A DNA stretch of 64,000 bases from positions 13,500 to 77,499 of the IMG/VR virus record IMGVR_UViG_3300050343_000230. One strand, given 5' to 3'. This DNA is from a virus. A program made the position numbers and the translations under genes. The notes beneath the pieces are model-generated. The model was not told the DNA's origin, made no database searches, and saw only the letters and a program-made list of their open reading frames with translations. Shown here in pieces: positions 50,342 through 63,974 of this stretch. Each line of letters opens with the position of its first letter. Positions within the stretch are counted from its first letter, which is position 1.

Positions 50342-51328
50342 GTTGTCTCGTTGGTTGAGGACTTTGACTTCAACGGTTTCGTTAGGGTTCCCCCCTCTGG
50401 ACTCCGGAAGAATATTGACACCTTCCGCGATCCCATACGCACCATTGAGCCGACTAGCGTCTTGCTTCGAGTGCTGGTTGATGTAGTCGTTATACATCTC
50501 TTGGAATTTCCAGGTTGATTCACGATCTTCATCGGGGATAGAGAACTGATCAAGGGAGAAGGCAGCAGCTTCTTGAGTATTGAAGATAGGCTTCTCATAC
50601 TCATCAACGCAGCAGATCTCTACGTTGTTCTGACCGCGCATGTCACTGACCAAGCTGGGGGTCCAGATGGTAGTGCAATAGAACTGTTCGTTCATCATCA
50701 GTGGAACTTCAGAGCCAATAGCTTTGGAGAAACACTTAGACATATCTGACTCAAACTCTTTGAGACTGCTTGATACATCAGTACCATTCAATCCTTTAAG
50801 AGTAAGGACAATAGGAAGCTTGTGGGCTCGCTTGTTCTCTTGGGTCAAGATGTAGATCAGGTATTTAGTGCGTACAGAAAACTTACGCTTGTACATCTCA
50901 CCTTTGCTTTGTGCAAGGTCAGCTGCAATCTTGTCGGCATCCCACAGTTCTTTGACACGATCGTTGTCAAATGAACCAAGAATCTGACGCATACCTGATG
51001 TCTCTTCCACCATCAAAGGAGAGCGGAGGAGGACTTGAACCCGTGGTCGATGGAAGTTAATTCCCAGTTCCTTGGAGGTATTGGGGGGCATACCAAAGGT
51101 TTGTTCGTAGTCAAAGCTGACCGATCCTTTGTCAAAGTCTGTGACTTCCGCAGTCCAACCACAGTTGTCCAGATCGCTATTGCGAATAAACCAACCACGT
51201 TTCTTTGATTTGTTAAGGGGTTGAATAGTTACAAGCGGCTGATAACCAGCCACAAAACGCTTGTCATTAAAGAAAGCGAATGACTCAAGCGATCGTGTCG
51301 CAAGAGCTGATGAAGATTTCGTAGGCAT
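50318..51328 (-). CDS. DUF5895-like protein
   Basis: KYLIYILTQENKRAHKLPIVLTLKG; next to SSB. Confidence 0.5.
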   Translation of the reverse strand: MPTKSSSALATRSLESFAFFNDKRFVAGYQPLVTIQPLNKSKKRGWFIRNSDLDNCGWTAEVTDFDKGSVSFDYEQTFGMPPNTSKELGINFHRPRVQVLLRSPLMVEETSGMRQILGSFDNDRVKELWDADKIAADLAQSKGEMYKRKFSVRTKYLIYILTQENKRAHKLPIVLTLKGLNGTDVSSSLKEFESDMSKCFSKAIGSEVPLMMNEQFYCTTIWTPSLVSDMRGQNNVEICCVDEYEKPIFNTQEAAAFSLDQFSIPDEDRESTWKFQEMYNDYINQHSKQDASRLNGAYGIAEGVNILPESRGGNPNETVEVKVLNQRDNLGADSML

Positions 51329-51357
51329 TGAGATAGTGAGTTTGTTCAGGGTGAATT

Positions 51358-51394
51358 AACTGGGCCTTACACGCGTAACTAGCGTTGCCCAGTT
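51358..51394 (-). repeat. structured intergenic element family I, copy A
   Basis: AACUGGG-CA-ACGC-loop-GCGU-GUAAGG-CCCAGUU. Confidence 0.75.
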
Positions 51395-51410
51395 GAATGA
51401 TCAGTATAGA

Positions 51411-52310
51411 TCAGAAGGGTGCGTCGTCATCAGCAGACGCTGGAAGATCTGGTAAAGCCTGTGCTGCATTGACTTCTACGAGTTCAGCCATGCTTTCATT
51501 AGCCTTGACCCATGGATCTAAAGCTGGGACAGGAGACGGTGGTGTAGGTGCAGAAGGTGCAGGAGCGATTGCATCTTGATGTGGTGATTCATTCTGCATG
51601 GTCTGGCCACCCCACAAAGAGGTGGGCATAGACCCTGCATTTATAGTGGTGCTAGGTTTCACCTCACTAGATACACCAGACTTAGGAGCAAGTGTCATCT
51701 TGTTGACTTGAATTTTGGTTTGACTTTTTTGTTCACCGCTTGCTTTATCTACCCATGCATCGGTAACTAAACGCCCACATATTGTGAGGCCAGTACCTTT
51801 ATGGGTGAAATCACATAGCAGTTGTGCTTGGTTGTAACGATCATCTGCTTTGTTAATTGCATAAAGATTAAACAAATCAGCTTGTTGTTTGCCTGTATTA
51901 ACAGACAATGTTTGATTCGTAATCATATAACCAGAGTCAGTACAACGGAATGACCTGGAATCTGATTGATCTACGTCACGAATACAACGACCGCCAAGGA
52001 TAATCTCATTGACAATGCCAAATGTTTCGTGGCTTACTGCATAGATTGATCCACCATGAATGGTATGCTCCCTGGTTTTAAGATCATGGCGTAGTGTGCC
52101 ACCGGCAATAAACAAAGTGCTGTTCTGCTTTACAGTAGAAAGCACTCTTGCCTTATCATCCTTGCCATAGACATGTACTGTGACAGGAGTTGGTGCTTTA
52201 CCTGACGCTGGAGGTACTAAGCAGTCAATGATTACATTCGTACGCGTCTGGTCAACATAGATCTCTTTAGGATCATTTGATGCTTGGACAGAAAGATAGA
52301 CTTTGTTCAT
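51411..52310 (-). CDS. ssb: single-stranded DNA-binding protein (tandem OB folds)
   Basis: KGTGLTICGRLVTDAWVDKASGEQKS; acidic tail DDDAPF; start MNKVYL. Confidence 0.8.
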   Translation of the reverse strand: MNKVYLSVQASNDPKEIYVDQTRTNVIIDCLVPPASGKAPTPVTVHVYGKDDKARVLSTVKQNSTLFIAGGTLRHDLKTREHTIHGGSIYAVSHETFGIVNEIILGGRCIRDVDQSDSRSFRCTDSGYMITNQTLSVNTGKQQADLFNLYAINKADDRYNQAQLLCDFTHKGTGLTICGRLVTDAWVDKASGEQKSQTKIQVNKMTLAPKSGVSSEVKPSTTINAGSMPTSLWGGQTMQNESPHQDAIAPAPSAPTPPSPVPALDPWVKANESMAELVEVNAAQALPDLPASADDDAPF

Positions 52311-52335
52311 AGCTTGAGAGTTTTGTTCAGAGTAG

Positions 52336-52363
52336 CTGGGACTTACACCCAATGGATGCCCAG
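52336..52363 (-). repeat. structured intergenic element family I, copy B
   Basis: CUGGG-CA-UCCAUUGGG-UGUAAGU-CCCAG. Confidence 0.8.
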
Positions 52364-52368
52364 TTTAA

Positions 52369-54231
52369 TTAATGAGTATCAGCCCAGCAATAGCCAGTCT
52401 TTGCATCACCTTCAATCTTGCAACGGAAACCAAAGAAGTCACCAGCTTCTATGAAAGAACGCAGGACTGTACTAATGATTCCGTCTTCTAGGCCTGGTCT
52501 ACAGGATAGTTGGATCTCGTCATGGATCATGGCGTGTTGATGCCAATCTTCACCATAAACATAGCCATCTAATTCCATATTCTTTTGTACGCCAATGACT
52601 ACCTGTTTCATTAACACTGCACCAGCTGATTGCAACAATGAGTTCAGTGCTTGGTATTCACTACGGCAATACAATGGCCTGCGGTCGAGGGCCAACAAAT
52701 GCCCTCGATCCAGCAGGCTTTTAGTTAGTGAGTCTTTGAGTTCTTGAAGAGCTGGTACTCCAGAATAGAAGGATTCGATAGCAGCTTTTCCGAGAGCTTT
52801 AAGTCGCTCGTTATCTTTTTCTGTAGCATCGATAATACTACCCGCCTTAGCATGTCCGCAGCCATAAAGAATCCCATATAGAAGACGTTTACTAATGTCC
52901 CGTGTGGCAACTCCGAACATGCGTTGATTGTATGTATGGATGTCTTTAGTTTCATCGATTACTACATCACCATATTGTCCATCATCCCATAAAGCTAAAT
53001 ATCCCGCTAGACACCTAAGCTCCAAAGCTTTAGCATCAGCACCGATGAGAACCCAATCATCAGGAGCATGGAATAAAGAACGGCATTCCTTTCCGTAAGG
53101 AGAATAAACAGCAGGAATTTGTGCCGTGTTGGGATTTCTGTGGCTACATCTTCCGGTGATGCATCCATTGGTGACCACATCACCATGCATGTATCCATCT
53201 TTGGAAACCAACTTGAGCCAACCGTTCTTACCATCTTTGATTTGACCGAGCCGTTTCTTAAGTAACATGTACTCAGCAAGAGGTTTAGCCTCAGGATATG
53301 GAAGGGCCTCAAGCACATCATCATTAAGGATTGGATTTCCTTTTTCAGTTTTGTGTTCAGGTTTCCATCCATACTTGGCAGTGAAACGATCAATAAGTTG
53401 TTGTCTGGAACCAGGGTTGAATTCTTCAGTGCGTACCTTTTTGAATGGGACTCCTTTGACATAGCCTCGTTTAGTGTTGTTTACTTTGGGTGTGAACCAT
53501 TCCTCATGTTGAATAGGAGGAAAGATTTCTTTTAGTTTAAGTTCTAGTTCTTGTTTCTTAAATTCAAGTTCATCCACAAGATTAAGACATTCATCAATAT
53601 CAAAAGGAAAGCCTGATCTAATTTGTCGCTCAATGGCTTGAGCGAAGTCATGCTCCAATCGATAAGCCGATTGCTTAATGTTCTGTCGTTCGATGACTTC
53701 GTATAACTTGGTAGTGACGTTGACATCTTGTTGGCAGTACACAAGCATCTCGGTACTGTATTGAGAAAAGTCTTTGAAATCGATCTTGTTATCACTGAGT
53801 CTGTAGCCCCAGGCTTTAAGACCAGCTGTTCCCCTGAGTCCAGGCGGTACGTTTGCGTAGTGATTGAGATCGAGGTCGTATAACTTTTCTTTTGGCCATA
53901 GTAATCTGGTCGCGACGAGTGTGTCGATGACATGTGGTTTCTTTGTAAAAAAGTTTGGATAAAGTTTTTCTAAGACTGGGATGTCATAAAAGATAATATT
54001 GTGCCCTATAAGAGCATCAGCATTCCTGATAAGCTCAAGAGCACTATCAACATCGTCAGGCCCAAAGCTAAGAGTTTGTTCTCGTGCGACATCATAGATA
54101 ACGACGCAGAAGATTTGAGTAACATCATCATAGAGTCCGTCAGTTTCTAAATCAAAAACGTACCAATTTTCACTTGAAGTACTTGGCTTCAGGCTGAACG
54201 TTGAGTCCTTTATTGGCAAGCTTTTTGTCAT
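52369..54231 (-). CDS. polA: family A DNA polymerase (3'-5' exo + pol, T7-like, Tyr762 type)
   Basis: FDLETDG, GHNIIFYD, DAKALELR, KRLLYGILYG, HDEIQ. Confidence 0.95.
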   Translation of the reverse strand: MTKSLPIKDSTFSLKPSTSSENWYVFDLETDGLYDDVTQIFCVVIYDVAREQTLSFGPDDVDSALELIRNADALIGHNIIFYDIPVLEKLYPNFFTKKPHVIDTLVATRLLWPKEKLYDLDLNHYANVPPGLRGTAGLKAWGYRLSDNKIDFKDFSQYSTEMLVYCQQDVNVTTKLYEVIERQNIKQSAYRLEHDFAQAIERQIRSGFPFDIDECLNLVDELEFKKQELELKLKEIFPPIQHEEWFTPKVNNTKRGYVKGVPFKKVRTEEFNPGSRQQLIDRFTAKYGWKPEHKTEKGNPILNDDVLEALPYPEAKPLAEYMLLKKRLGQIKDGKNGWLKLVSKDGYMHGDVVTNGCITGRCSHRNPNTAQIPAVYSPYGKECRSLFHAPDDWVLIGADAKALELRCLAGYLALWDDGQYGDVVIDETKDIHTYNQRMFGVATRDISKRLLYGILYGCGHAKAGSIIDATEKDNERLKALGKAAIESFYSGVPALQELKDSLTKSLLDRGHLLALDRRPLYCRSEYQALNSLLQSAGAVLMKQVVIGVQKNMELDGYVYGEDWHQHAMIHDEIQLSCRPGLEDGIISTVLRSFIEAGDFFGFRCKIEGDAKTGYCWADTH

Positions 54232-54418
54232 TAGTGTTAATCCATTTAAGAATACTCATAGCACCTGTCTTATTAGGTGAACAGAAAGCTTTAGAAATTT
54301 GAGAAGCACGTTCGATCGGAATCAAATCAAACTTATTCTCTTCAACGTTAGGCTTAATAGCGTGGGGCACCCCGTTAATGTCGGTGGTGATCAGATAAGA
54401 CAATTGAGTTGAGGACAT
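54170..54418 (-). CDS. hypothetical protein
   Basis: 82-aa ORF. Confidence 0.55.
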   Translation of the reverse strand: MSSTQLSYLITTDINGVPHAIKPNVEENKFDLIPIERASQISKAFCSPNKTGAMSILKWINTNDKKLANKGLNVQPEAKYFK

Positions 54419-54470
54419 TTGAAATTAGAATAGCAAAGAAAAAATAGATAGCAAGTAGATAAGTGTCTAC

Positions 54471-55241
54471 TTATTTGTGGTAACCAACAAAGTCACCGTT
54501 GCGTTTGCGATCTTGAATTGATTTGCCTGCAACAGATCCCTTGGGCTGGGTGCCATGGACTAGAAGTGCAAACGGTTGAGTACCAAAACAATGACTGTCG
54601 TCGTGATCAATTGATAGACCCAGACCAGCTGCTTCCATCTGGCTGTAGACCACATGAGAGATGCGAACGAATTTGTGTGCATGACTCTTGAGTAGTGGGT
54701 CAAGGTTGCCACCTTGTGATGCAGTGAGGTAGAAGTTCTCTGGGATCTGGTCGAGGTTATTCAGCCACAGTTGTAGCTGTTTGGTGTAAGCGTAATACTT
54801 ACGAGTTGGATTCTTGCGAGCTACACGTAGCCATGCAAGGAAGTAAAGCTCTGACCAGAAATCTCCTGACTCATGGATACGAACCAGCTCAATCTTAGAC
54901 TTAGGATCTTTGGCGTCAATCGATTGTGTGATTAACATTTGTAACGCTTCAATCTTTTCTACTGGGTTGTTAATAGGCACCATGGTTTCTTTCAACATGT
55001 CCCAGTTGTGCCAACGTGCGGCACGACATTGAGGGCTTCGTGCCTCACTACTAGCAGCAAAGCAACGGTATGGTGCAGCATCAGTGTTGTTTGTCTGTGG
55101 CAGATCTTGGATCTTGCCAGTGACTCGGTCACTGAATGTCTTGCATACACCAGCATTAGGGCATGTGTACCCAGCTGGTAGTGAGAAGATCAGGCGCTTG
55201 CCAAGTTTGGCATTGCCTGTGGAAAACTTGAGTAGTGTCAT
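54471..55241 (-). CDS. GP88-like phage protein
   Basis: FSLPAGYTCPNAGVC...CFA, RIHESGDFWS, YAYTK. Confidence 0.7.
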   Translation of the reverse strand: MTLLKFSTGNAKLGKRLIFSLPAGYTCPNAGVCKTFSDRVTGKIQDLPQTNNTDAAPYRCFAASSEARSPQCRAARWHNWDMLKETMVPINNPVEKIEALQMLITQSIDAKDPKSKIELVRIHESGDFWSELYFLAWLRVARKNPTRKYYAYTKQLQLWLNNLDQIPENFYLTASQGGNLDPLLKSHAHKFVRISHVVYSQMEAAGLGLSIDHDDSHCFGTQPFALLVHGTQPKGSVAGKSIQDRKRNGDFVGYHK

Positions 55242-55270
55242 TTGATTTTGTGTGGTGTAAGTGAATGGCC

Positions 55271-55306
55271 CCAGGACTTACGCGATGCTCTACTACCGCT
55301 GCCTGG
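55271..55306 (-). repeat. structured intergenic element family I, copy C
   Basis: CCAGG-CA-GCGGU..AUCGC-GUAAGU-CCUGG. Confidence 0.8.
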
Positions 55307-55312
55307 TATAAT
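55304..55312 (+). promoter_or_regulatory. extended -10 promoter for the riboswitch/DUF4278 unit
   Basis: TGG-TATAAT 8 nt upstream of the riboswitch 5' end. Confidence 0.6.
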
Positions 55313-55320
55313 TAATGATA

Positions 55321-55370
55321 CGTTCACCTCTTAAGAGGCGCATAACAACAGGCGTGGAACGGCACCTGTT
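55321..55370 (+). ncRNA. glutamine-II (Downstream-peptide) riboswitch
   Basis: CGUUC-A-CCUC(UUAA)GAGG-CGCA..AACAGG-CGUG-GAACG-GCA-CCUGUU: P1, P2 and 3' pseudoknot, upstream of a YRG peptide. Confidence 0.85.
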
Positions 55371-55386
55371 TTATCGGAGAACTCCA

Positions 55387-55530
55387 ATGACCCTTACTTA
55401 TCGTGGTCTGACTTACGAATCTCAGTCTGGTTTGCTTACTCATTTATTGAGCAAGTATAAGAAAGAGTTACGTCGTGAGAAAGAACTTAAGAAAGATCAA
55501 GAAAGAATGGCGGCAGGTCCAGCTATTTAA
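55387..55530 (+). CDS. DUF4278 'downstream peptide' (GifB/IF17 N-terminal-like), 47 aa
   Basis: MTLTYRGLTY motif; GGAG SD; directly after the riboswitch. Confidence 0.85.
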   Translation: MTLTYRGLTYESQSGLLTHLLSKYKKELRREKELKKDQERMAAGPAI

Positions 55531-55659
55531 TAAGATAAAGAAGTAGACAGTACTGTCTACGTTTCATGTACACTTATTCATGAAGCTTTACTCGCTACCG
55601 GAAGATAGCCAGATCAGGTTAGGCGCGTGAGCCACTGAATCTTCCATTACTGGATCTAG

Positions 55660-55863
55660 CTAGCACCAGGGCCAACTTAGTTCAAGGTCTTCTTGTTCCC
55701 ACGCGGCGGGATCATAAGGACGTTGTGCTACGTAGTCTTTAAACAGGCGTTTCATTTCTTCAAATGGAACGTCTATTTCTTTGGCGATTACTGCAACATT
55801 AGTCTGTCCTTGGTAGATCAGATCAAGTGCTTGTTCCGTAGTGATTACAGTCATGTGCTTCAT
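55660..55863 (-). CDS. hypothetical HTH-like protein
   Basis: NVAVIAKEIDVPFEEMKRLF. Confidence 0.5.
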   Translation of the reverse strand: MKHMTVITTEQALDLIYQGQTNVAVIAKEIDVPFEEMKRLFKDYVAQRPYDPAAWEQEDLELSWPWC

Positions 55864-56335
55864 TGGTCATGTACTCAGGCAAGAACCAGTCACAACGGTC
55901 TTGACCTCTGTTGTTATGTTCACATTGTAGACAAGCGATAGTTTCTTGAGGTTCAGTTGTATTTGTTTGTGGTGCAATGTTGCCTTGTTCAAATACATGT
56001 TCAGGTACTTCTAGTGTTACGACTCTGTAGTCACAGTTTTGACAGTGCTTACTGCGTCGTCTGTAGTTCTGTTTAGTGATACGAGTAGTAATCACTTTAA
56101 GAAAGTGTTGGTTGCATACAGGACAAGCTTCAGTAAAGCCTTTCCTTGCAGCAGTGATACGTTCAGATTCTGTTTTAACAACAGCAGGTTTGCGATGTAC
56201 CTTGGATGCACATACAGTCGAGCAATAAGTTTTAATACGACCGCGTCTGATGTTGTTATTGTGTTGCCATTTTGGACGTGTAAATAACACGCCACATTTG
56301 ACACACGTTAACTCAACAGGAGGAACTCTTTTCAT
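55823..56335 (-). CDS. multi-Zn-finger protein with an NrdR-like zinc ribbon
   Basis: CPVC...VITTR...RRRSKHCQNCDYRVVTLE. Confidence 0.6.
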   Translation of the reverse strand: MKRVPPVELTCVKCGVLFTRPKWQHNNNIRRGRIKTYCSTVCASKVHRKPAVVKTESERITAARKGFTEACPVCNQHFLKVITTRITKQNYRRRSKHCQNCDYRVVTLEVPEHVFEQGNIAPQTNTTEPQETIACLQCEHNNRGQDRCDWFLPEYMTNEAHDCNHYGTST

Positions 56336-56984
56336 TGGGCCACATTGATTGTGAGATGATTGGGAATTGTTTGGTGAAGATTACTTTGCAAGCATCAGCA
56401 ATCTCTTTGTGTTCTTGTTGCGTACCATTAGAAGTACGCAGATCTATGTAATGCATCCATGATCGGAGTGTACCGCTCATGAATAATTTTGTTGGTGAGG
56501 CTAAAGGCAATAAAAATCTTGCTGATTCCTTTGCAATACCATCAGATAACATCTCTTGATATAGATGTTCAGCGTCTTCAAAGAGACAGCTGGTTCGACG
56601 GTAGTACTCAGCAAGCTTGGACTTGCCTATCTTTTCAACTAGATCATCATTAGAGTTCTGCCTGTTCTTGATGTCTTGTGAACGTAGATGAGGAACAGTT
56701 GCATTACCAATTGCATTGGTGTTTGCATACCGTTGAGAGAATTCTTGGAAGCTAAAGCTTCTATGTCTCAGTATCTGTGGTGAGATACCACGTGTTGTAT
56801 GGATTTCTAAGCACATGGATGCCATCTCAAATGGACTCCAGTGCTTATGTTTGATTAGATAAGACAGTAGACGTGGACTGGTAGTTGTGTTCTTTGCATT
56901 GGCAGGGGCGCTGACGCGAGCCATCTCTACGATGAGAGGCTCTGCCATTTGTGTTGCCCATACCAATGAAACAGTTGGTGTCAT
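56313..56984 (-). CDS. thyX: FAD-dependent thymidylate synthase
   Basis: HWSPFE, RHRSFSFQEFSQRY motif, ESARFLLP; start MTPTVSL. Confidence 0.95.
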   Translation of the reverse strand: MTPTVSLVWATQMAEPLIVEMARVSAPANAKNTTTSPRLLSYLIKHKHWSPFEMASMCLEIHTTRGISPQILRHRSFSFQEFSQRYANTNAIGNATVPHLRSQDIKNRQNSNDDLVEKIGKSKLAEYYRRTSCLFEDAEHLYQEMLSDGIAKESARFLLPLASPTKLFMSGTLRSWMHYIDLRTSNGTQQEHKEIADACKVIFTKQFPIISQSMWPNEKSSSC

Positions 56985-57073
56985 AATTAGTATTGAAAAA
57001 TCCCCGGTTGTTCCAAGACCAGGGATGTGGTCCACTTCATCGCCGGGGGTTGATCAACAACCCCTAGCAGATG

Positions 57074-57430
57074 TTAAGCAGTAGCTGCTTCTGTGTCAAT
57101 AGTGTCAGCAGTAGATGCCTCAGTGATCTTGTCGATCATTGCGGACATCATTACTGCATTCTCCTGAGTCTTCTTGAAGAATGCATTGACTCGTTCAGCG
57201 GACATGGTATGAATCATGCCACCGGATTCAATGTACTTCCAGCTGCCATCAGGTTGTGGTTCACCGTTGGTAACAGCAAGCTTCTCGCTGTTACGAATGT
57301 ACTTGATCTGTAGATTGTGATGATCAGTTAGACCTTCACGATCAATCCAAGTAAGGCCAAGGTTGTACCGTTGCTCGCCATCCATGTGTGCATGGGGCTG
57401 AGGAATGAGGTGCTTGATTGCTCCGAACAT
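57074..57430 (-). CDS. hypothetical protein
   Basis: 118 aa after the tRNA, CA-rich leader. Confidence 0.65.
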   Translation of the reverse strand: MFGAIKHLIPQPHAHMDGEQRYNLGLTWIDREGLTDHHNLQIKYIRNSEKLAVTNGEPQPDGSWKYIESGGMIHTMSAERVNAFFKKTQENAVMMSAMIDKITEASTADTIDTEAATA

Positions 57431-57456
57431 GATGCTGTGTGATGTAATGGGACGGT

Positions 57457-57533
57457 TGGTAGGAGTGGCGGGATTCGAACCCGCACTGTAGCGATTTTAA
57501 GTCGCTTGCCTCTGCCAATTGGGCTACACTCCC
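57457..57533 (-). tRNA. trnL: tRNA-Leu(UAA), 77 nt, short variable loop, encoded CCA
   Basis: GGGAGUG/CACUCCU acceptor, AGCGA-CUUAAAA-UCGCU anticodon arm, GCGGG-UUCGAAU-CCCGC T arm, ACCA end. Confidence 0.95.
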
Positions 57534-57536
57534 GTT

Positions 57537-57592
57537 CTAGGGCTTACACTTTCGGTGTCTCCTGGAGGCGGCGTTACCTACCGGATGCCTAG
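57537..57592 (-). repeat. structured intergenic element family I, copy D
   Basis: CUAGG-CA-U...GUGUAAGC-CCUAG, ending 3 nt before the tRNA 5' end. Confidence 0.7.
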
Positions 57593-57598
57593 CTGTTA

Positions 57599-59368
57599 TC
57601 AGGACTGTAGCTGAAGCTCGCGGACATTCAATGCCATCTTAAGTTGATGTTCAACAATGGCACGATCAATGTCGTTGAGTCTGGCATTGCCAACGTCTGC
57701 TATCTGAGAGACGTGCATTACACCGTTGTCAACTGTTAGTTGCACAGTGTAACGAGGCTTGTTATCAATCATGACCAGTACGATCATGTGTCTGTACTTC
57801 TTAATACCGTCTGCATAGCTCTGGGAGCCGACGCAGTTACGTACTGCGCGGCCCCAATGAGCGAGCATGTGTGTATCAAGTGGTTGCAAGAACGTATAGG
57901 TATTAACTACCTCAGGTTCTGCCAGTGTGATGTCACCTTTGAGTGGTACTTTGATTGGTTCAGGGAATAGTTTCTGGGGTAATGAAGTCAATGGATTGTC
58001 TAGTTTCCATGTCTCTGCCATGAGGTGATCATGCCATTCAGTCATGCGCCAACGTCTTGGCTTAAGCTTGGCTGGATCTGTACCAGCTGCAATACATTGG
58101 GTAAGCATGGCGTATGTATCTCTCCATTCGTACGTATACATGTGTACGTTACCTGTTCTGTTGTCAATTCTTTGACGTGACTTATATTCTTTAGATGTTT
58201 CTATTGCTTTGGCATATTGCTTGCATAACATATTCAAGAAGGATTCAACAGGTAAGTTGGCACGTAACCATTCGTATCCTGTCTCAGAATGATACCCATG
58301 CATCTCGATACGAGATAGGTAACCATATCTTGAATGTAAGTAGTTGATATCCATGTCACGCCATATGCACTTGACGTGGCATACAGACTCAATGAATATC
58401 TGTAGTTCGCTATAAGGTTGTATCAATAGGTCTAAGTTAAATTGTTGTTTAGCATTCTCTGTGTCATATATAGTTTGTAGTTTATCCATTGCAGTGACTA
58501 CCATGCGACGGAACCATTTAGATTCCCATACGTCTGTTAGCCATGGATTCTTATAGTGATTAGAGATCTTTTGCAATACATCATTGATGTCATGTACGTA
58601 AGAACTCTCTATAATGTTTAACCATTTAGGACGTGTGTGACTATGTGTTAAGAGCTTGGATAAGCCTGTGCCTTTATTAGCTACGCGTTCAAATACATTA
58701 CGTGAGAAGCCACCTTTGTAAGTAGGTATCTTGCTTAGTAAGTATGCTTCCCATTTAGTAACAGCTTTGTATATAACGCTTCCATTACCCCATGATGAAA
58801 TGTAATGATTATTGCGATCAATGCCTTTCCAATAACTAGATGAGTAACCATTTTGGATTGCTACATCGTTAACTAACAATGTATCTCTGTACCAATATGA
58901 CTTACCATCTTTAACGTGTTGCATTTCTCTTCGTTTGTATTCATTATCTTCATCTGATTTAGATGATTGAAGCATGCAGGTGTTACATGCCTTACGTCCT
59001 GTTGCTGTGTCCTTATAGGTATAGCTCAGTCCGTAGTAATAAGTATCTTCTTCTTTCTGTGGTAACCATGCGGCTACCCATAGTTGTTTGTAGTAGTAGA
59101 TAACTGCTACTGGCTGAGGTTCTTCACCGAACACTGGTCGTGTGATAAGACGTACCTTACCGTTTGCAACTGACGTGGAGTTGATGTAGTCAACTGCCTC
59201 TTGCCATGTTCGATCATTAACAATGTGAGTTGGTATGAGGTTAGATGGGTTGCCATTGGGATACTTAGCTTTCTTACTAGTAGTAGTTGTCTTTGGTTGT
59301 AGTCTCTTGAGCGTCTTGTCATAGGACATGACTTCAAGTTGAAGGTTGGAAGGAAGATTGAATCGCAT
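57599..59368 (-). CDS. PcfJ-like domain protein
   Basis: WHDHL...LAHWGRAVRNCVGSQSY...YTVQL C-terminal pattern. Confidence 0.65.
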   Translation of the reverse strand: MRFNLPSNLQLEVMSYDKTLKRLQPKTTTTSKKAKYPNGNPSNLIPTHIVNDRTWQEAVDYINSTSVANGKVRLITRPVFGEEPQPVAVIYYYKQLWVAAWLPQKEEDTYYYGLSYTYKDTATGRKACNTCMLQSSKSDEDNEYKRREMQHVKDGKSYWYRDTLLVNDVAIQNGYSSSYWKGIDRNNHYISSWGNGSVIYKAVTKWEAYLLSKIPTYKGGFSRNVFERVANKGTGLSKLLTHSHTRPKWLNIIESSYVHDINDVLQKISNHYKNPWLTDVWESKWFRRMVVTAMDKLQTIYDTENAKQQFNLDLLIQPYSELQIFIESVCHVKCIWRDMDINYLHSRYGYLSRIEMHGYHSETGYEWLRANLPVESFLNMLCKQYAKAIETSKEYKSRQRIDNRTGNVHMYTYEWRDTYAMLTQCIAAGTDPAKLKPRRWRMTEWHDHLMAETWKLDNPLTSLPQKLFPEPIKVPLKGDITLAEPEVVNTYTFLQPLDTHMLAHWGRAVRNCVGSQSYADGIKKYRHMIVLVMIDNKPRYTVQLTVDNGVMHVSQIADVGNARLNDIDRAIVEHQLKMALNVRELQLQS

Positions 59369-59393
59369 TTGATTTGATGTGGTGTAAAGGAAA

Positions 59394-59427
59394 AACCTGG
59401 GACTTATACCGTTTGGATGCCCAGGTT
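59394..59427 (-). repeat. structured intergenic element family I, copy E
   Basis: AACCUGGG-CA-UCCAAACGG-UAUAAGU-CCCAGGUU. Confidence 0.8.
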
Positions 59428-59432
59428 ATTAG

Positions 59433-59717
59433 TTAGTCAATGTCAAGTTCCCATTCAAGATCTAGTGGATCAATGAATTGGATCTTGTCGTGTTCAGTAC
59501 CATGTACCGGTGGTGGAAGTTCGTCTGGCTCTAGGACAAAGCTCGCGCTACAAAGCGCTGGGCCATACTCTGCAGGATGCGCAGCGTCAGCTGGATGGTA
59601 GGTAGCAGGAATTGTCTGCACCATGTCAGCAATGTTGGCAACAGCAATCCAGTGAGACGTTCCATCGGGTTCAACAAGGTCAAGGTAAATGTTGTCAATT
59701 GAGATGATGTTGGTCAT
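59433..59717 (-). CDS. hypothetical protein
   Basis: PAEYGPALC motif, 94 aa. Confidence 0.65.
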   Translation of the reverse strand: MTNIISIDNIYLDLVEPDGTSHWIAVANIADMVQTIPATYHPADAAHPAEYGPALCSASFVLEPDELPPPVHGTEHDKIQFIDPLDLEWELDID

Positions 59718-59911
59718 GAGTTCTCCAATAAGATGATTGCAGCTTGACGTAAGCCGTTGGTCTTACCGCAGCCTATGAGCCATGCATCAGAACCTACTTT
59801 ATGCTTGTAGGTTTCGTCATGTGATGCATCTGCTGCGGCAGAGATGATGAGATACTTCTCCCATACTTTGTCACGGTAGATGCCAGGAAGTTCAGTGATT
59901 GATGAAGTCAT
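59714..59911 (-). CDS. hypothetical protein
   Basis: start reassigned to MTSSITEL. Confidence 0.55.
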   Translation of the reverse strand: MTSSITELPGIYRDKVWEKYLIISAAADASHDETYKHKVGSDAWLIGCGKTNGLRQAAIILLENS

Positions 59912-59936
59912 TTGATTAGATGTGATGGATGGACAT

Positions 59937-59963
59937 GGGTAGTTTAAAGACATACCCAGGTCT
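59937..59963 (-). repeat. 27-nt H-type pseudoknot, family II, copy a
   Basis: AGAC-CU-GGGUA-U-GUCU-UUAAAC-UACCC. Confidence 0.8.
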
Positions 59964-60033
59964 AGTTCATTGGTATCTATAAGTCTTAATAGTTGTGGTC
60001 GTGGCTGTTCCCAGGGGGTGCAGGGGGACTGAC

Positions 60034-60309
60034 TTACTGGTCGTCAGACCACATGGAGTTGTCTTCTTTGTACTCAGGTAGATCTGGTACTTGGAAGGAG
60101 GATATATCTGGTAGGTCATAGCGTTTAGCTAAGCCCGTACCAGGTAGTGATGTGGTTCCTTTTAGGTGGCCAGTCTCAACATTGATGTTGATTGTTTGGC
60201 TGAAGGGACCAATCTTAAAGGTCTTGGTGTAGGACTTGACGCCACGCTCGGTGATATTAAAGCCGAGGATGGACTTGTCAAAGTTGAATGCTGATTTCTT
60301 ACGTGTCAT
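60034..60309 (-). CDS. hypothetical protein (DUF4236-like)
   Basis: FKIGPFSQTINI...TTSLPGTGL. Confidence 0.5.
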   Translation of the reverse strand: MTRKKSAFNFDKSILGFNITERGVKSYTKTFKIGPFSQTININVETGHLKGTTSLPGTGLAKRYDLPDISSFQVPDLPEYKEDNSMWSDDQ

Positions 60310-60464
60310 GTTGAACGCTTCCGCATTGCAGGGTTTAGATCACTGAGTGCAATTAACTGGCAGATAGTTTCTATCCTTTGATAAATTTGCGTGTCAGTTG
60401 ATTGAAGCTCTAGCACCTTGTCTTCAAGATACTCAATTCTTTCTAGTAGTTCTCTCTTTTTCAT
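60306..60464 (-). CDS. hypothetical protein (52 aa)
   Basis: MKKRELLERIEYLEDK...; ATGA-coupled at both ends. Confidence 0.5.
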   Translation of the reverse strand: MKKRELLERIEYLEDKVLELQSTDTQIYQRIETICQLIALSDLNPAMRKRST

Positions 60465-60524
60465 ACCAAGTCTTCAAAAGCTGCTTTCTTACGTGTCATG
60501 TTGAATGATTTTGTAGAGGTGTAA

Positions 60525-60728
60525 CTATGAAAGGATGTCAGGGATGATGTGGTCAGGATCTGACTCATCCATGTTGGACATGATGAATCGTTCACCGTCT
60601 GGTGACATAAAGCCACCGATGAACTTGGCACCTGCCTTGTCAGCAGCTGCTTTCATCTGAGCAACAATCTGCATAGCACGTAGCTTGTCATCAGTAGGTA
60701 GTGAGTCTGGAACTTGGAGGTCATTCAT
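60525..60728 (-). CDS. hypothetical protein
   Basis: 67 aa. Confidence 0.6.
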   Translation of the reverse strand: MNDLQVPDSLPTDDKLRAMQIVAQMKAAADKAGAKFIGGFMSPDGERFIMSNMDESDPDHIIPDILS

Positions 60729-60746
60729 TTGATTGATTAGCGTAGC

Positions 60747-61031
60747 TTATGAGTTTGTGGTTGTTTGCATAAAGGCCTTGAAGCGTTTCGCTACGTCCCT
60801 TTGTGCATCCATTTGGTCATGGGCTCTCTTCTCTGCTTCTGCAGAGGTGATCTCTTCATTCATCATGAAGGCTGTTACTAAGCCTGCAAACTCTTCGTTC
60901 TCTTGTTCGTCGAGCCAGTCGTCTAGTAGCAATGGTGCTGAGTAATCATCACCATAGTTCTGTGGAGATGGATCGAAGTCGTCCAAGTAGGCTTGGTACT
61001 CTTTGAGTTGCTTGTCTGTAAAGGATGCCAT
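60747..61031 (-). CDS. acidic hypothetical protein
   Basis: start MASFTDKQ after the family I element. Confidence 0.6.
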   Translation of the reverse strand: MASFTDKQLKEYQAYLDDFDPSPQNYGDDYSAPLLLDDWLDEQENEEFAGLVTAFMMNEEITSAEAEKRAHDQMDAQRDVAKRFKAFMQTTTNS

Positions 61032-61049
61032 GTGATGTAGTGATAGGAA

Positions 61050-61083
61050 ACCCTGGGACTTATGCATTGTAGCTGCCCAGGGT
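61050..61083 (-). repeat. structured intergenic element family I, copy F
   Basis: ACCCUGGG-CA-GCUACAAUGC-AUAAGU-CCCAGGGU. Confidence 0.8.
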
Positions 61084-61113
61084 ATTAGTTATTTGTACTG
61101 TTACTAGATGTGT

Positions 61114-61485
61114 CTAGCAATAGTAAGGCCGCTCGGTGGGATAGTCCAAGGCATATCCCGAACCGAGTGTTGCGTGAAGGGCGGTAAAGCCTCTGCTGTC
61201 ATCAATAGGTGGTTGTTCGTAGAGACAGAGGTCTTGGGTGAGGTCGAGTAGTCGGTTGATACATTGCTTCTTCGTGAAGATGAAATGGGTTTGGTACGCT
61301 TGCCCGACTTCGTACCACCAGCCGCCTTCTTCCGGTCCACCAAATTGTTGGTTGACGTTGTGGAGTTTGATGCTGGTTGGTTCTGCACCGTCCCAGTCGG
61401 TTGCCCAGTTGTACTGGTCGATCCAGTATCGGGCTGCTCCGGTGCGTGGATAGCGGTTGATGTAGTCCTGGAGGAGTGAGGCCAT
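61114..61485 (-). CDS. conserved phage hypothetical protein
   Basis: FGGPEEGGWWY...YPTERPYYC. Confidence 0.7.
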   Translation of the reverse strand: MASLLQDYINRYPRTGAARYWIDQYNWATDWDGAEPTSIKLHNVNQQFGGPEEGGWWYEVGQAYQTHFIFTKKQCINRLLDLTQDLCLYEQPPIDDSRGFTALHATLGSGYALDYPTERPYYC

Positions 61486-61558
61486 AGGAGGATTGAAAGT
61501 AAAGCAATGATGTGATCGATGACGTGAACCTCGACAGGTTCAACTGTGGGCTTGAGTT

Positions 61559-61735
61559 TCAAAGGAGAGCCTCAGGGTGATTGTCAATGAACTGTTCGTA
61601 GACATGGTCTACTTCTGGTTCGTCCATTTCCTCACGCATTGCGTTCTCTTGTTGATAAGCAATGTCTGCAAGGATGTCAAGGTCGTCGGCCTTGATCTCT
61701 TGCATGAGGCGATGGAGTTCGGACATGGTTGACAT
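61559..61735 (-). CDS. acidic hypothetical protein (58 aa)
   Basis: MSTMSELHRLMQEIKADD...; read manually, follows a family II element. Confidence 0.6.
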   Translation of the reverse strand: MSTMSELHRLMQEIKADDLDILADIAYQQENAMREEMDEPEVDHVYEQFIDNHPEALL

Positions 61736-61764
61736 GATGTTGAATTGAATAATGTGATGGGACA

Positions 61765-61791
61765 GGACAGTTTAAGGACATGTCCAGGTCC
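61765..61791 (-). repeat. 27-nt H-type pseudoknot, family II, copy b
   Basis: GGAC-CU-GGACA-U-GUCC-UUAAAC-UGUCC. Confidence 0.8.
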
Positions 61792-61952
61792 ATAGATTAG
61801 CGTTTGAGTAGTCTGTAAAGCCACCTGGCTATTGCATTTCTTAACCCTGGTGACTTATAAGAGTCAAGGGTGCAAAAGTTATATTTAGAAATGCGGAAGG
61901 TGTGTTGTGCCATGTGTCTTGCAAATAGAATTATGCGTTTGGAAAGTGTTAC

Positions 61953-62207
61953 TTAGAAGCTAATGAAAGGAGCTTGAATAGTGTTGCTTGGTGCTGGTGA
62001 TTGGACATAGCGTTGGCAATAAGCCATGACTTGTCCATCGTTATAGCCTGCATTCTGTAGTTGATTGATACAGATACAGGCCTGAGTACCAAGCTGAGAT
62101 ATACAGTAGTTCATAACAGGACTAGCCTGAGAACTGGAGTAGTACTGAGCCTTGGCTTCCAACCCTGCGGTTGTGGCGACAAGGAGGGGGAGGAGGAACT
62201 TGATCAT
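61953..62207 (-). CDS. signal-peptide-bearing hypothetical protein
   Basis: MIKFLLPLLVATTAGLEAKAQ. Confidence 0.5.
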   Translation of the reverse strand: MIKFLLPLLVATTAGLEAKAQYYSSSQASPVMNYCISQLGTQACICINQLQNAGYNDGQVMAYCQRYVQSPAPSNTIQAPFISF

Positions 62208-62211
62208 TAAC

Positions 62212-62424
62212 TTAGAAGCGGATCTTCTTGTTGATGTAGCTACTGTCATTGTCGTAGCTAGTGGTCTTAGTAGTTGTGTCTTCCTCATACTCTTTAGAGT
62301 CTCGGAATGCTTCACGTACTACTAATGCACAGCCAGTGGCAACGATGAAGGGTGCTGCACCGACCATGGCTGCGATACCAGTAAGACCGGCACCAAGTGC
62401 GATTGCTTGTGACTTGTTGTTCAT
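62212..62424 (-). CDS. small membrane protein
   Basis: hydrophobic N-half. Confidence 0.55.
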   Translation of the reverse strand: MNNKSQAIALGAGLTGIAAMVGAAPFIVATGCALVVREAFRDSKEYEEDTTTKTTSYDNDSSYINKKIRF

Positions 62425-62609
62425 GATAGTTGTAGATCGTCTTGAAAGAATTGGTTTAAAACGTAACGCATCTTTATATCATCGGAGTTAGTAAATTCTT
62501 TGCTCCAATGAGTAACAATGCATTTCGTCTCCTGACATTCAATAGTCAGTCGTGTCTCATTAGGTAACTCAACTGTTAGATCGTTACCTGGTTTGATGTC
62601 AATGAGCAT
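62421..62609 (-). CDS. hypothetical protein
   Basis: 62 aa after family I copy G. Confidence 0.55.
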   Translation of the reverse strand: MLIDIKPGNDLTVELPNETRLTIECQETKCIVTHWSKEFTNSDDIKMRYVLNQFFQDDLQLS

Positions 62610-62621
62610 AGAGGTGTGAGC

Positions 62622-62665
62622 AAGAGGTAGGACTTACACACCTGGCGGGGTGATGCCTATCTCTT
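62622..62665 (-). repeat. structured intergenic element family I, copy G
   Basis: AGAGAUAGG-CA-UCACC..GGUG-UGUAAGU-CCUACCUCU. Confidence 0.8.
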
Positions 62666-63029
62666 AGTTATAGATGGGGGATTCGTAGATGAATCCTTTC
62701 TCGAATGTTTTCCATGCCTTATAGATAGCGGCACGGATCTCTTCTCGGTTGTTATAGATCACCACTGCTCCTTCCCAGGCTAGCTGGGTGAGCAGGATGA
62801 TCAGTGCAATGGCATGTACTAACAGCCATTTGAGTGGTTTGTGTAGGTGCCTGCGATAGAACTTACCAAAGGCATAGCCTGCCTCGTAGGTGTTCTTGAC
62901 GCAGTTACCAAGGAAGTTCAAGCATAACAATAGGGCTGTGATGCTGAACAGTTCACCACCTAATGCATAGATACGCATGGCGGTAGTGATGAAGGTGTCA
63001 AGGTGTGACAGGATGTGAAGGGTAGTCAT
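62664..63029 (-). CDS. membrane protein
   Basis: two hydrophobic segments. Confidence 0.6.
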   Translation of the reverse strand: MTTLHILSHLDTFITTAMRIYALGGELFSITALLLCLNFLGNCVKNTYEAGYAFGKFYRRHLHKPLKWLLVHAIALIILLTQLAWEGAVVIYNNREEIRAAIYKAWKTFEKGFIYESPIYN

Positions 63030-63050
63030 TAGTTTAATGTGTAATGGTTG

Positions 63051-63130
63051 ATGCCCCCTCGTGTAGAGAGTGAGGAGGCAATAACTGACCAGGGCCTTCG
63101 AGGCCCCAGCTCACGCTTGGTGATCAGTTG
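63051..63130 (-). repeat. three-way-junction + hairpin element, family III, copy i
   Basis: AACUGAUC...GGGGCC-UCGAA-GGCCCU-GGUCAGUU-AU-UGCC..GGCA. Confidence 0.75.
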
Positions 63131-63288
63131 TCAGGTGAGATACGCTTGGCAACCTTCCTGCGAACGTTGTCAATTTCGTATGTCACTTGTGCTTTGCTTG
63201 GCACACCTGGTGCCTTAGCTTTGCTGATACCATCTGCTGTGATATGCAGAAGGTTGGATAGATTCTTGCGGATGTTGAGTGCAGTCAT
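63124..63288 (-). CDS. basic hypothetical protein (54 aa)
   Basis: MTALNIRKNL...ISPDN*; read manually. Confidence 0.6.
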   Translation of the reverse strand: MTALNIRKNLSNLLHITADGISKAKAPGVPSKAQVTYEIDNVRRKVAKRISPDN

Positions 63289-63325
63289 TGTTCAGTAGGT
63301 AGTGTGTGTTGTAATAACCTAGACC

Positions 63326-63550
63326 TTAGAAGCCAGGGCCATACTTGTTAGTGGTGGCATAGCCGTAAGTCTTACAGAAGTCCACATGAGCAGCATGCTT
63401 TTCAGCAGGCCAGTCATGGTTAAGACATTGCTTACGGGTAGCAGCTTCTAATACTGTAGGTAATACAACTGCAGCTGAGATGGTACTCAGTGCAAGTAAC
63501 AGTGTACTGATGAATACAAGACGGCCATCGGCAAGGAACTTGTTAAACAT
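63326..63550 (-). CDS. small membrane-anchored protein
   Basis: start MFNKFLADG; QCLNHDWP...HVDFC. Confidence 0.6.
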   Translation of the reverse strand: MFNKFLADGRLVFISTLLLALSTISAAVVLPTVLEAATRKQCLNHDWPAEKHAAHVDFCKTYGYATTNKYGPGF

Positions 63551-63565
63551 GATGTGATGTAATAG

Positions 63566-63635
63566 ATGCCACGGAGGTGTGGCAATAACTGACCCCGGCA
63601 TTGCACCGGGGATGACCGCGTTTACGGATCAGTTG
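63566..63635 (-). repeat. three-way-junction + hairpin element, family III, copy ii
   Basis: AACUGAUC-CGU(AAAC)GCG...CCGG-UGCAAUG-CCGG-GGUCAGUU-AU-UGCC..GGCA. Confidence 0.75.
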
Positions 63636-63925
63636 GTAGTGATGACTAGACGATGGATGAACTTCAGCTGGTACTTATCACCCACCTTGTTGGCATAGAC
63701 ATGCCAGGTGAATGGTACGTAGTCCTCTGCATCTGTTGGTCCATCCATTGTTGTTAGGAAGGACTTGAACATCTGCATGACATCAGTGATTGTCTTGCCA
63801 TAGAACTGGAGCTGACACGTTGTGATCGTGACAGATCTTGTGTTGGTTGTTGCAATCTTGTCGCTGAGTTCATAACACTTGGTCAAGAACTCTTCGCACT
63901 TGATGTCTTCTGATGTGTAATTCAT
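63629..63925 (-). CDS. hypothetical protein
   Basis: 98 aa ending ITTN*. Confidence 0.6.
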   Translation of the reverse strand: MNYTSEDIKCEEFLTKCYELSDKIATTNTRSVTITTCQLQFYGKTITDVMQMFKSFLTTMDGPTDAEDYVPFTWHVYANKVGDKYQLKFIHRLVITTN

Positions 63926-63947
63926 GTGATTGAATGTGATTGAACGC

Positions 63948-63974
63948 GAGAAGTTTAAAGACTTACTCAGGTCT
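63948..63974 (-). repeat. 27-nt H-type pseudoknot, family II, copy c
   Basis: AGAC-CU-GAGUA-A-GUCU-UUAAAC-UUCUC. Confidence 0.75.

Follow-up and report, generated by a model that had tools for sequence, protein, structure and literature searches.

We analyzed a 64,000-nucleotide stretch of viral DNA from the IMG/VR database (the window: bases 13500 to 77499 of a single 77.5-kb phage contig) and, in particular, the structured RNA elements that lie between genes of its early arm. An earlier note, made from the sequence alone, had sorted these elements into three unrelated families. The source is a marine, S-EIV1-like cyanophage: its DNA polymerase is 63% identical to the enzyme of Synechococcus phage S-EIV1, with no nearer named relative listed, and the same DNA was found again in seawater and in marine viral metagenomes. 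From 64000 down to about 49000, the genes are on the minus strand. The products of this early arm include a PcfJ-like protein of 589 amino acids (aa), ThyX, a GP88-like protein, a family A DNA polymerase, SSB, and a DUF5895 protein. Pfam searches of 30 proteins identified no phage RNA polymerase or RNase that could read the motifs.

Both strands of the whole window were searched with regular-expression patterns and with three covariance models, with the filters off. The covariance models (R1, R2, and R3 for families I, II, and III) found seven copies of family I, three of family II, and two of family III, all on the minus (sense) strand between 51358 and 63977, which is exactly the count that had been given for 51.3 to 64 kb. 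The late plus-strand arm had been described as free of copies, and indeed nothing rose above noise outside the early arm except one weak family III-like match, at 21402-21312 on the minus strand (15.4 bits, E = 0.007). It lies in another block of minus-strand genes and may be a degenerate copy or a chance match. A pattern scan of the remaining 13.5 kb of the 77.5-kb genome found no elements. The 12 elements and the neighboring tRNA are listed here from the start of the early arm, with paired stems numbered P1 to P4 (families I and III) or S1 and S2 (family II) and with lengths in nucleotides (nt) and, for open reading frames (ORFs), in aa:

63977-63944, minus strand: family II, copy 1 (core 63974-63947); R2, 28.8 bits; five of six S2 pairs; AGAC-C-UGAGUA-A-GUCU-UUAAAC-UUCUCG; 21-nt leader; AUG at 63925
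63635-63549, minus strand: family III, copy 1; R3, 68 bits; fold of -30 kcal/mol; P1 AACUGA/UCAGUU, P2 CCG..CGG, P3 CCCCGG-UGCAAUG-CCGGGG; then AUUGCC, hairpin GCCAC..GUGGC, 15-nt leader, and AUG at 63550; P1 includes the UGA stop (63631-63629) of a 98-aa ORF
63130-63045, minus strand: family III, copy 2; R3, 30.1 bits; fold of -37.9 kcal/mol; P1 AACUGAUC/GGUCAGUU, a GNRA hairpin, P3 GGGGCC-UCGAA-GGCCC, P4 GCCUCCUC..GAGGGGGC; 24-nt leader to AUG at 63029; P1 includes the UGA stop (63126-63124) of a 54-aa ORF
62662-62625, minus strand: family I; R1, 27.7 bits; outside the seed alignment; one P1 mismatch; begins 1 to 2 nt past the UAA of a 121-aa ORF; 15-nt leader to AUG at 62609
61794-61761, minus strand: family II, copy 2 (core 61791-61764); R2, 36.1 bits; GGAC-C-UGGACA-U-GUCC-UUAAAC-UGUCCU; 28-nt leader; AUG at 61735
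61082-61051, minus strand: family I; R1, 36.2 bits; 19-nt leader to AUG at 61031
59966-59933, minus strand: family II, copy 3 (core 59963-59936); R2, 35.7 bits; AGAC-C-UGGGUA-U-GUCU-UUAAAC-UACCCA; 24-nt leader; AUG at 59911
59426-59395, minus strand: family I; R1, 38.8 bits; heads the 589-aa PcfJ-like gene (AUG at 59368; Pfam)
57594-57535, minus strand: family I with a long P2; R1, 20.7 bits; outside the seed alignment; begins 6 nt past the UGA of the 589-aa gene
57533-57457, minus strand: tRNA-Leu(UAA); ARAGORN; Rfam RF00005, 62.4 bits
55308-55269, minus strand: family I; R1, 31.3 bits; heads the GP88-like 256-aa gene (AUG at 55241; Pfam)
52365-52334, minus strand: family I; R1, 42.8 bits; 5 nt past the DNA polymerase stop; heads the SSB gene (AUG at 52313)
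51394-51358, minus strand: family I; R1, 32 bits; heads the DUF5895 336-aa gene (AUG at 51328)

The layout around the elements is as the earlier note had it. Eleven copies precede protein genes, with leaders of 15 to 29 nt that contain just 6 G in 248 nt (2%, versus 20% in the sense strand of the early arm); none of the 11 leaders contains the Shine-Dalgarno (SD)-like words GGAG, GAGG, AGGA, or GGA. The twelfth copy, from family I, ends 3 nt before the tRNA-Leu(UAA). The upstream stop codon lies 1 to 31 nt before the element or, for both copies of family III, inside P1; the exception is the copy at 55308, which comes after a plus-strand insert. A mechanically listed 91-aa ORF (63326-63601, minus strand) opens at an AUG at 63601, in the UGCAAUG loop of family III copy 1; its real start is more likely the AUG at 63550, behind the G-free leader.

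What did not hold is the idea of a phage-wide system with one element for each cistron. Elements head the tRNA and only 11 of about 24 early protein genes. The other genes overlap or closely trail their upstream neighbors, and they have no element in relatives either. Thus, the unit is the cassette rather than the cistron.

Three covarying folds and their exchange between relatives

For comparison, we retrieved 41 S-EIV1-like loci from IMG/VR (about 0.8 Mb in total) with a profile of the PcfJ-like protein. S-EIV1 itself contains all three families. The nearest relative of the window is locus L002, whose PcfJ-like protein is 88% identical. The earlier note had proposed covariation as a check, and about 40 S-EIV1-like contigs show covariation in all three folds.

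Family I forms a hairpin whose asymmetric loop is invariant. It consists, in order, of P1, C-A, the P2 hairpin, R-U-A-A-G-N, and the 3' strand of P1. In an alignment of 81 distinct copies, G-G-C and U-A-A-G..C-C are invariant, while P2 varies in sequence and in length (3 to more than 15 base pairs [bp]). Many copies are just 28 nt in all, with 5 to 7 bp in P1 and 3 bp in P2. Across the alignment, 87% of cells are paired, versus 63% in shuffles and 20 to 42% when the partner columns are slid. Because the search demanded five P1 pairs, the unbiased evidence comes only from P2 and the two outer pairs of P1; in P2, all seven pairs show compensatory changes on both sides. We also considered whether the loop might pair with a downstream YUUAC, but this motif is found in 20% of copies and does not covary. 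A BLAST search of GenBank phages with a 32-nt copy of family I gave only chance matches within genes.

Family II is a 28-nt H-type pseudoknot: N-G-W-C, C, S2a (6 nt), U, G-W-C-N, UUAAAC, and S2b (6 nt). A pattern that makes no demand on pairing found 281 distinct instances, and 269 of them have at least three of the four S1 pairs and at least five of the six S2 pairs. Across 150 aligned copies, 93% of cells are paired. S1 is paired in 96.8% of cells; its G-C and C-G pairs are invariant, and its middle pair is U-A in 131 copies and A-U in 19 (the form of the window copies), with no mismatches. S2 (6 bp) is paired in 91% of cells, and five of its six pairs show compensatory changes, alternating among A-U, G-C, and G-U (A-U in 74, G-C in 61). 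We rejected a reading of UUUAAAC as a slippery site for frameshifting: the copies in S-EIV1 have AUUAAAG, GUAAAAC, and CUAAAC, which do not fit X XXY YYZ. In two of the window copies (61794-61755 and 59966-59930, minus strand), GUCC is repeated right after S2b, and these two can alternatively form one long nested hairpin (-12.5 and -11.9 kcal/mol, respectively). This alternative is unavailable in most relatives.

Family III is a three-way junction, with P1 of the form (A)ACUG/CAGUU, a small P2 hairpin (CCG-N6-CGG), and a 7-bp P3 hairpin with a 7-nt loop, commonly UGCAAAC. The 3' side of the junction continues with AUUGCC and a further hairpin. Overall, 94% of cells are paired, six of the seven P3 pairs show compensatory changes, and every one of 57 copies has CUGA in P1. 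The UGA of P1 serves as the stop of the upstream ORF in 33 of 55 copies, both window copies among them. In some relatives, the P3 loop is a perfect T-loop of the UUCGAAU type, as in GGUUCGAUUCC or GGAUCGAAUCC. A pairing of GCAA in the P3 loop with AUUGCC was considered and rejected, as it is P4 with which the G/A change covaries. Most relatives have, in place of a simple hairpin after AUUGCC, a second pseudoknot, UGCCC-CAGCGGAGAU-GGGCA-CCGC (L005:4503-4545, L018:1537-1579, and many others), which covaries as well (GCGG/CCGC, GUGG/CCAC, GCCG/CGGC, and CGCAGG/CCUGC); both window copies have plain hairpins at this position. Arrays of family III precede the small genes that lie furthest upstream, and the later early genes and the replication genes are headed by families I and II. 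The earliest genes, promoter-proximal in the early arm, are thus marked by family III and later ones by families I and II. At L018:988-3286, nine copies of family III are spaced about 250 to 300 nt apart, and each appears to head a single very small ORF.

None of the 12 elements matched a family in Rfam 15, either at the gathering score or at E values up to 10; the sole Rfam matches in the searched DNA were the tRNA and, on the opposite strand, a Glutamine-II riboswitch. The elements form three real RNA families that Rfam does not include. Neither are they promoters or intrinsic terminators: we found 24 promoter-like sites (28.6 expected), none of them tied to the elements, and a run of five U follows only the copy at 59426, with no conserved U-run at the others. 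A terminator scan (19 sites, 11.1 expected) picked 50248, 55560, and 57018 rather than the elements.

The elements keep to the sense strand in the relatives as well. With the covariance models, 94 of 94 family III matches and 100 of 100 family II matches are on the sense strand; with the pattern search, 142 family I matches are sense and 6 are antisense. Placement is also regular. The median distance from the upstream stop to the element is 6 nt for family II and 11 nt for family I, and the median distance from the element to the next AUG is 22 nt (II), 30 nt (I), or 38 nt (III). In nearly all S-EIV1-like contigs, a copy of family I follows the PcfJ-like gene and ends 3 to 4 nt before a tRNA.

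The earlier note had also asked whether homologous genes swap element families between phages. Families I and II do exchange before four orthologous genes (element in the window, and numbers of orthologues with each element or none):

PcfJ-like gene: window, family I; orthologues, family II 37, family I 2, none 3
SSB gene: window, family I; orthologues, family II 31, family I 1, none 0
GP88-like gene: window, family I; orthologues, family II 29, family I 3, none 2
DUF5895 gene: window, family I; orthologues, family II 12, family I 2, none 16

Genes that are element-free in the window, such as DNA polymerase, are also element-free in 34 to 37 relatives. That two unrelated folds occupy the same orthologous junctions is our strongest argument that they share one job.

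The elements are also cassette borders in evolution, as we found by comparing the window with one relative, L002. Homology breaks within elements or at most 15 nt from them at 63098, 62677, 59406, and 52338. Specifically, it stops 15 nt before the family I copy at 62662 and resumes inside the family I copy at 59426 (at 59406), so that a 3.3-kb block without homology in L002 is flanked by copies of family I; another homology block ends inside the family I copy at 52365 (at 52338). The SSB cassette (52365-51358) is missing from L002, which has a single copy of family I and then directly the DUF5895 gene (L002:15040-15098). This difference is a cassette indel between two element repeats, the copies at 52365 and 51394.

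Recombination handles had been among the alternatives in the earlier note, and the breakpoints and the indel support them directly. The elements could even be primarily DNA-level handles, like the mobile cassette borders known as promoter-early stem-loops (PeSL), with the RNA folds being incidental. PeSL of T4-type phages are likewise short structured motifs that flank small early genes and lie at the boundaries of insertions, deletions, and replacements, as the elements do at four breakpoints and one indel relative to L002 (PMC2839356, PMC4122927). However, a PeSL pairs a terminator-like stem-loop with an early sigma-70 promoter and works through DNA and transcription (PMC2839356, PMC4122927). 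The elements have neither promoter nor U-tract (promoter-like sites are at chance level), form three elaborate covarying folds, and recur in unrelated phages. The compensatory changes, the freedom of P2 in sequence and length, and the strict sense orientation all speak for selection on a folded single strand, and we consider a purely DNA-level role very unlikely. Because covariation and the strand rule indicate selection on the RNA fold, we take recombination to be a consequence or an additional role.

Family II and the coremin motif of plant viruses

A literature search with the invariant decamer of family II led to coremin, also called xrRNA-C, a type of exoribonuclease-resistant RNA (xrRNA). 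The earlier note had recognized none of the three as a named family; this stands as far as Rfam goes, but family II does have a named relative. In coremin, a 4-bp hairpin (hp1) that has a YGAD loop is followed by a conserved spacer and then by a second hairpin (hp2), and the exoribonuclease Xrn1 is stalled one nucleotide before hp1 (PMC6546385, PMC10520033). Coremin or its selected variant xrRNA-WCC is carried by beny-, cucumo-, and many other eukaryotic RNA viruses (PMC6546385, PMC10520033, PMC10321173). Our literature search found no paper that links coremin to phages.

The sequences can be compared directly. The coremin of BNYVV (a benyvirus) is GUCCGAAGACGUUAAACUAC (PMC10520033), the family II consensus is GUCCUGAGCAUGACGUUAAACUGC, and one copy from a relative (L003:11400) is GUCCGAAAUGACGUUAAACUAC, whose loop, CGAAAU, fits YGNNAD. 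Family II and coremin have GUCC...GACGUUAAACU in common, including nucleotides that are essential for stalling Xrn1. Mutations that abolish stalling map to the loop (C5) and to A15-A17, C18, and U19 (PMC6546385), and these positions are invariant or at least 90% conserved in the 150 phage copies. Within the spacer UUAAACUAC, U-A-A-A is invariant in these copies and the next C and U are at least 90% conserved. Family II also has the 4-bp stem of hp1 with its GUC/GAC core; the window copies have GAC/GUC instead, and the natural swap of an hp1 pair is tolerated in plant viruses (PMC6546385). The phage loop is longer, at 8 nt (C-U-G/A-N-N-N-A-U, with the first C and the penultimate A invariant), than the coremin consensus of YGAD or YGNNAD; octaloops without a fixed consensus have been reported for plant coremins (PMC10520033). 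A pseudoknot between the loop and the spacer has been proposed for coremin, and the selected Watson-Crick variant xrRNA-WCC stalls Xrn1 (PMC10321173). In family II, the 6-bp S2 provides a Watson-Crick form of this pairing.

The second hairpin is where family II departs from coremin. A hairpin of at least 3 bp follows the spacer in just 16% of 140 copies, and the median minimum free energy of the following 30 nt is 0 kcal/mol. In place of hp2, 6 nt of family II pair back to the loop. Therefore, we call family II a coremin-like variant and not a member.

In summary of the comparison, the two share a 4-bp hp1 of the form (N)GUC/GAC(N), the first C of the loop, a UUAAACU spacer with the essential AAA, C, and U, pairing of the loop to the spacer, and a compact size of about 28 nt. 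Both are intergenic or lie just past stop codons, sometimes with several copies per genome. Family II differs in belonging to DNA phages of bacteria that lack Xrn1, in its 8-nt loop and canonical 6-bp second stem, and in having no obligatory hp2. Family II looks like a natural, extended (6-bp) form of xrRNA-WCC.

Family II is not confined to S-EIV1-like phages. An exact 23-mer from it occurs in at least 119 IMG/VR stretches, many with quite different flanks that include SD-bearing genes, as well as in Moorella phage MTATph1, a 6-kb microvirus (where the copy follows the last gene), and Nostoc phage NMeng1 (where it ends 6 nt before a tRNA). The 23-mer is also present in 37 contigs of bacterial genomes, versus about 0.3 expected by chance, with carriers among Bacillota, Actinomycetota, Omnitrophota, Planctomycetota, Saccharibacteria, and others. 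Conservation ends at the edges of the 28-nt core, which implies that the module is autonomous and needs no phage-specific protein. Family I is similarly widespread: it is present in at least 120 IMG/VR stretches, where some copies precede tRNAs and others precede genes with an SD. Outside the S-EIV1-like phages, family II lies 16 nt past the 3' end of a tRNA at L077:470-550 and L084:7950-8030 and about 45 nt before a tRNA at L131:12769-12860, and family I lies about 5 nt before a tRNA at L204:3453-3540.

Candidate roles of the elements

As family II is kin to an RNA that stalls exoribonucleases, its role may be protection from decay. We see about an even chance that the elements are protein-free roadblocks to 5'-to-3' decay and also recombination breakpoints. 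If so, the early arm would be transcribed as a long polycistronic RNA in which interchangeable RNA "caps" head each cassette. Each cap would be a compact, mechanically stable fold that sits between the footprints of the ribosome terminating upstream and the one initiating downstream. It would block movement in the 5'-to-3' direction, by the exonuclease RNase J and possibly by 5'-end-dependent scanning by RNase E. Decay that began upstream would then halt at the element, leaving a stable, translatable downstream message or tRNA precursor, and the surviving message would start with the fold and a G-free, unstructured leader without SD. As a by-product or second function, the repeated elements would be sites of cassette exchange, gain, and loss. 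We infer nuclease stalling by family II in the phages, and the same job for families I and III. The post-transcriptional reading of the earlier note fits in that the elements are structured, on the sense strand, interchangeable, and, for family II, related to a nuclease-stalling RNA; its phage-wide scope does not.

There is precedent for the enzymology. xrRNAs block the bacterial RNase J1 in vitro (review PMC8374639), and cyanobacteria possess RNase J (PMC7283877). In chloroplasts, intergenic PPR proteins define the 5' ends of messages by blocking RNase J (PMC3799425). That barrier would share with the elements an intergenic block that stabilizes the downstream 5' end against a 5'-to-3' exonuclease of the cyanobacterial type, but in chloroplasts the barrier is a bound protein, whereas in the phage it would be the RNA fold itself. 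A family II copy 16 nt past the 3' end of a tRNA sits where tRNA processing would create a new 5' end.

Several points weigh against protection from 5'-to-3' decay. To our knowledge, bacteria have no Xrn1. The hp2 that directly follows the plant motif, and that the plant motif requires for resistance to Xrn1, is mostly missing in the phages. Families I and III have no known relative that blocks nucleases, and their role would be argued from positional equivalence only. RNase P removes the copies that abut the 5' end of a tRNA, so these cannot cap the mature tRNA; they would fit just as well as a shield for the 3' end of the upstream message. Finally, one motif-bearing Bacteroidetes metagenome-assembled genome has no RNase J, leaving four of five motif-bearing genomes positive. 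RNase J scored above the curated cutoff in all four motif-bearing isolate genomes, but this adds little because 8 of 14 control genomes encode it too.

The copies next to tRNAs raise the alternative that the elements are 3'-end shields: RNase E or RNase P would cut the downstream leader or the 5' end of the tRNA, and the element, by then a few nt from the new 3' end, would guard the upstream message against 3'-to-5' exonucleases such as PNPase and RNase II/R. The elements do begin a median of 6 to 11 nt past the upstream stop, and P1 of family III contains that stop. Family I ends 3 to 4 nt before the tRNA in S-EIV1-like phages and family II ends 6 nt before it in NMeng1, so that an RNase P cut there would leave a very short 3' overhang. 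However, the distance from the element to the AUG is equally tight, the copy at 55308 has no minus-strand gene just upstream, one family II copy comes after a tRNA, for which a 3' shield would be superfluous, and coremin is known to act in one direction, from the 5' side (PMC6546385). We consider such shielding unlikely.

Because the spacing is tight on both sides, distances do not separate a 3'-end shield from endonucleolytic punctuation, in which host enzymes (RNase P and RNase Z for family III, RNase E or RNase III for the others) would dice the polycistronic RNA. Mitochondrial tRNAs and the RNase III sites of T7 early RNA are precedents for such dicing, and tRNA-like t-elements and mascRNA are further comparators of the tRNA type. 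Like these tRNA-type elements, family III lies between coding regions and has a T-arm-like hairpin beside an acceptor-like stem: P3 (7 bp) directly precedes the 3' strand of P1 (5 to 6 bp), as in tRNA, for a total of 12 to 13 bp. The elements are also associated with true tRNAs. On the other hand, family III has just two arms plus P1, it is called by neither ARAGORN nor the Rfam tRNA model RF00005, and its P1 5' strand holds the upstream stop, so a cut by RNase P 5' of P1 would strip the upstream gene of its stop codon.

As for RNase III, the T7 early sites (R0.3 to R1.3) are irregular duplexes of about 20 bp, roughly two helical turns around an internal loop, that leave hairpins at the ends of messages and thereby affect stability. 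They resemble the elements in being structured and in lying between cistrons of a polycistronic early transcript. In contrast, family I is as short as 28 nt and then holds about 10 bp, too few for RNase III, while families II and III are a pseudoknot and a three-way junction, respectively. Cleavage alone would also leave the conserved loops unexplained. Overall, we regard endonucleolytic punctuation as unlikely. The analogies that the earlier note drew with T7 RNase III sites and RAGATH motifs do not hold as membership, given the lack of an Rfam hit and the shortness of family I.

The elements might instead be translation modules, either a standby or S1-recruiting platform for initiation without SD or an insulator against ribosome sliding and re-initiation. 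The fixed spacing of 20 to 30 nt to AUGs without SD and the G-free leaders would suit this role, and the spacer of about 6 nt between stop and pseudoknot resembles the geometry of frameshifting or readthrough. Coremin itself blocks scanning ribosomes and stimulates -1 frameshifting (PMC10520033, PMC10321173). However, the same elements lie before tRNA genes, in phages whose downstream genes have a clear SD, and after the last gene of the microvirus, and we find such a role in translation quite improbable.

We also considered whether the elements are new classes of small self-cleaving ribozymes. Hammerhead, twister, and HDV-like ribozymes are known for this pattern of different folds that are interchangeable at equivalent sites, and the elements show it beside tRNAs and in many unrelated phages. 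But no known natural self-cleaving class is as small as the 28-nt cores, no Rfam ribozyme matches at E values up to 10, and the kin of family II are nuclease blockers. Self-cleavage therefore seems highly improbable.

A broader form of the roadblock reading is possible, but we lean against it: all three families would be xrRNAs of bacterial viruses, the coremin fold would be a universal, protein-free mechanical block shared by the viruses of bacteria and of eukaryotes, families I and III would be new xrRNA classes, and the swappable caps would turn a long early transcript into individually stable messages. We know of no xrRNAs other than those of eukaryotic RNA viruses. If the reading is correct, then a Watson-Crick coremin fold in DNA phages and prophages of many phyla would extend the xrRNA principle to prokaryotes, and family II would supply hundreds of covarying natural sequences for the still-unsolved structure of coremin. 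It would also offer compact, 28-nt parts with which to stabilize or insulate cistrons in engineered operons. That three unrelated folds interchange at orthologous junctions amounts to an unusual experiment of nature, through which the roles of families I and III can be tested directly, and the link between an RNA module and cassette exchange bears on the evolution of phage early regions.

Other features of the early arm

Three metatranscriptome runs contain small pieces of the stretch, as Logan contigs at depths of 1 to 7 from which strand and ends cannot be read. The edge of one such contig, a single low-depth record, is at 59431, which is the start of a family I copy.

Terminator-like hairpins with U-runs are present at 50248-50219 (minus strand), 55543-55560 (both strands), and 57018-57002 (minus strand). 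The strongest has a 13-bp stem and is 3' of the DUF5895 gene. These hairpins may be the true ends of transcription units in the early arm.

The Glutamine-II riboswitch aptamer is at 55318-55368 on the plus strand (RF01704, 40.4 bits, with a gathering score of 33). It is followed by GGAG and then by a 47-aa ORF (55387-55530, plus strand) that begins MTLTYRGLTYES. Together, they form an antisense insert within the early arm that adjoins the family I copy at 55308-55269, and they look like a phage version of the cyanobacterial "downstream-peptide" arrangement.

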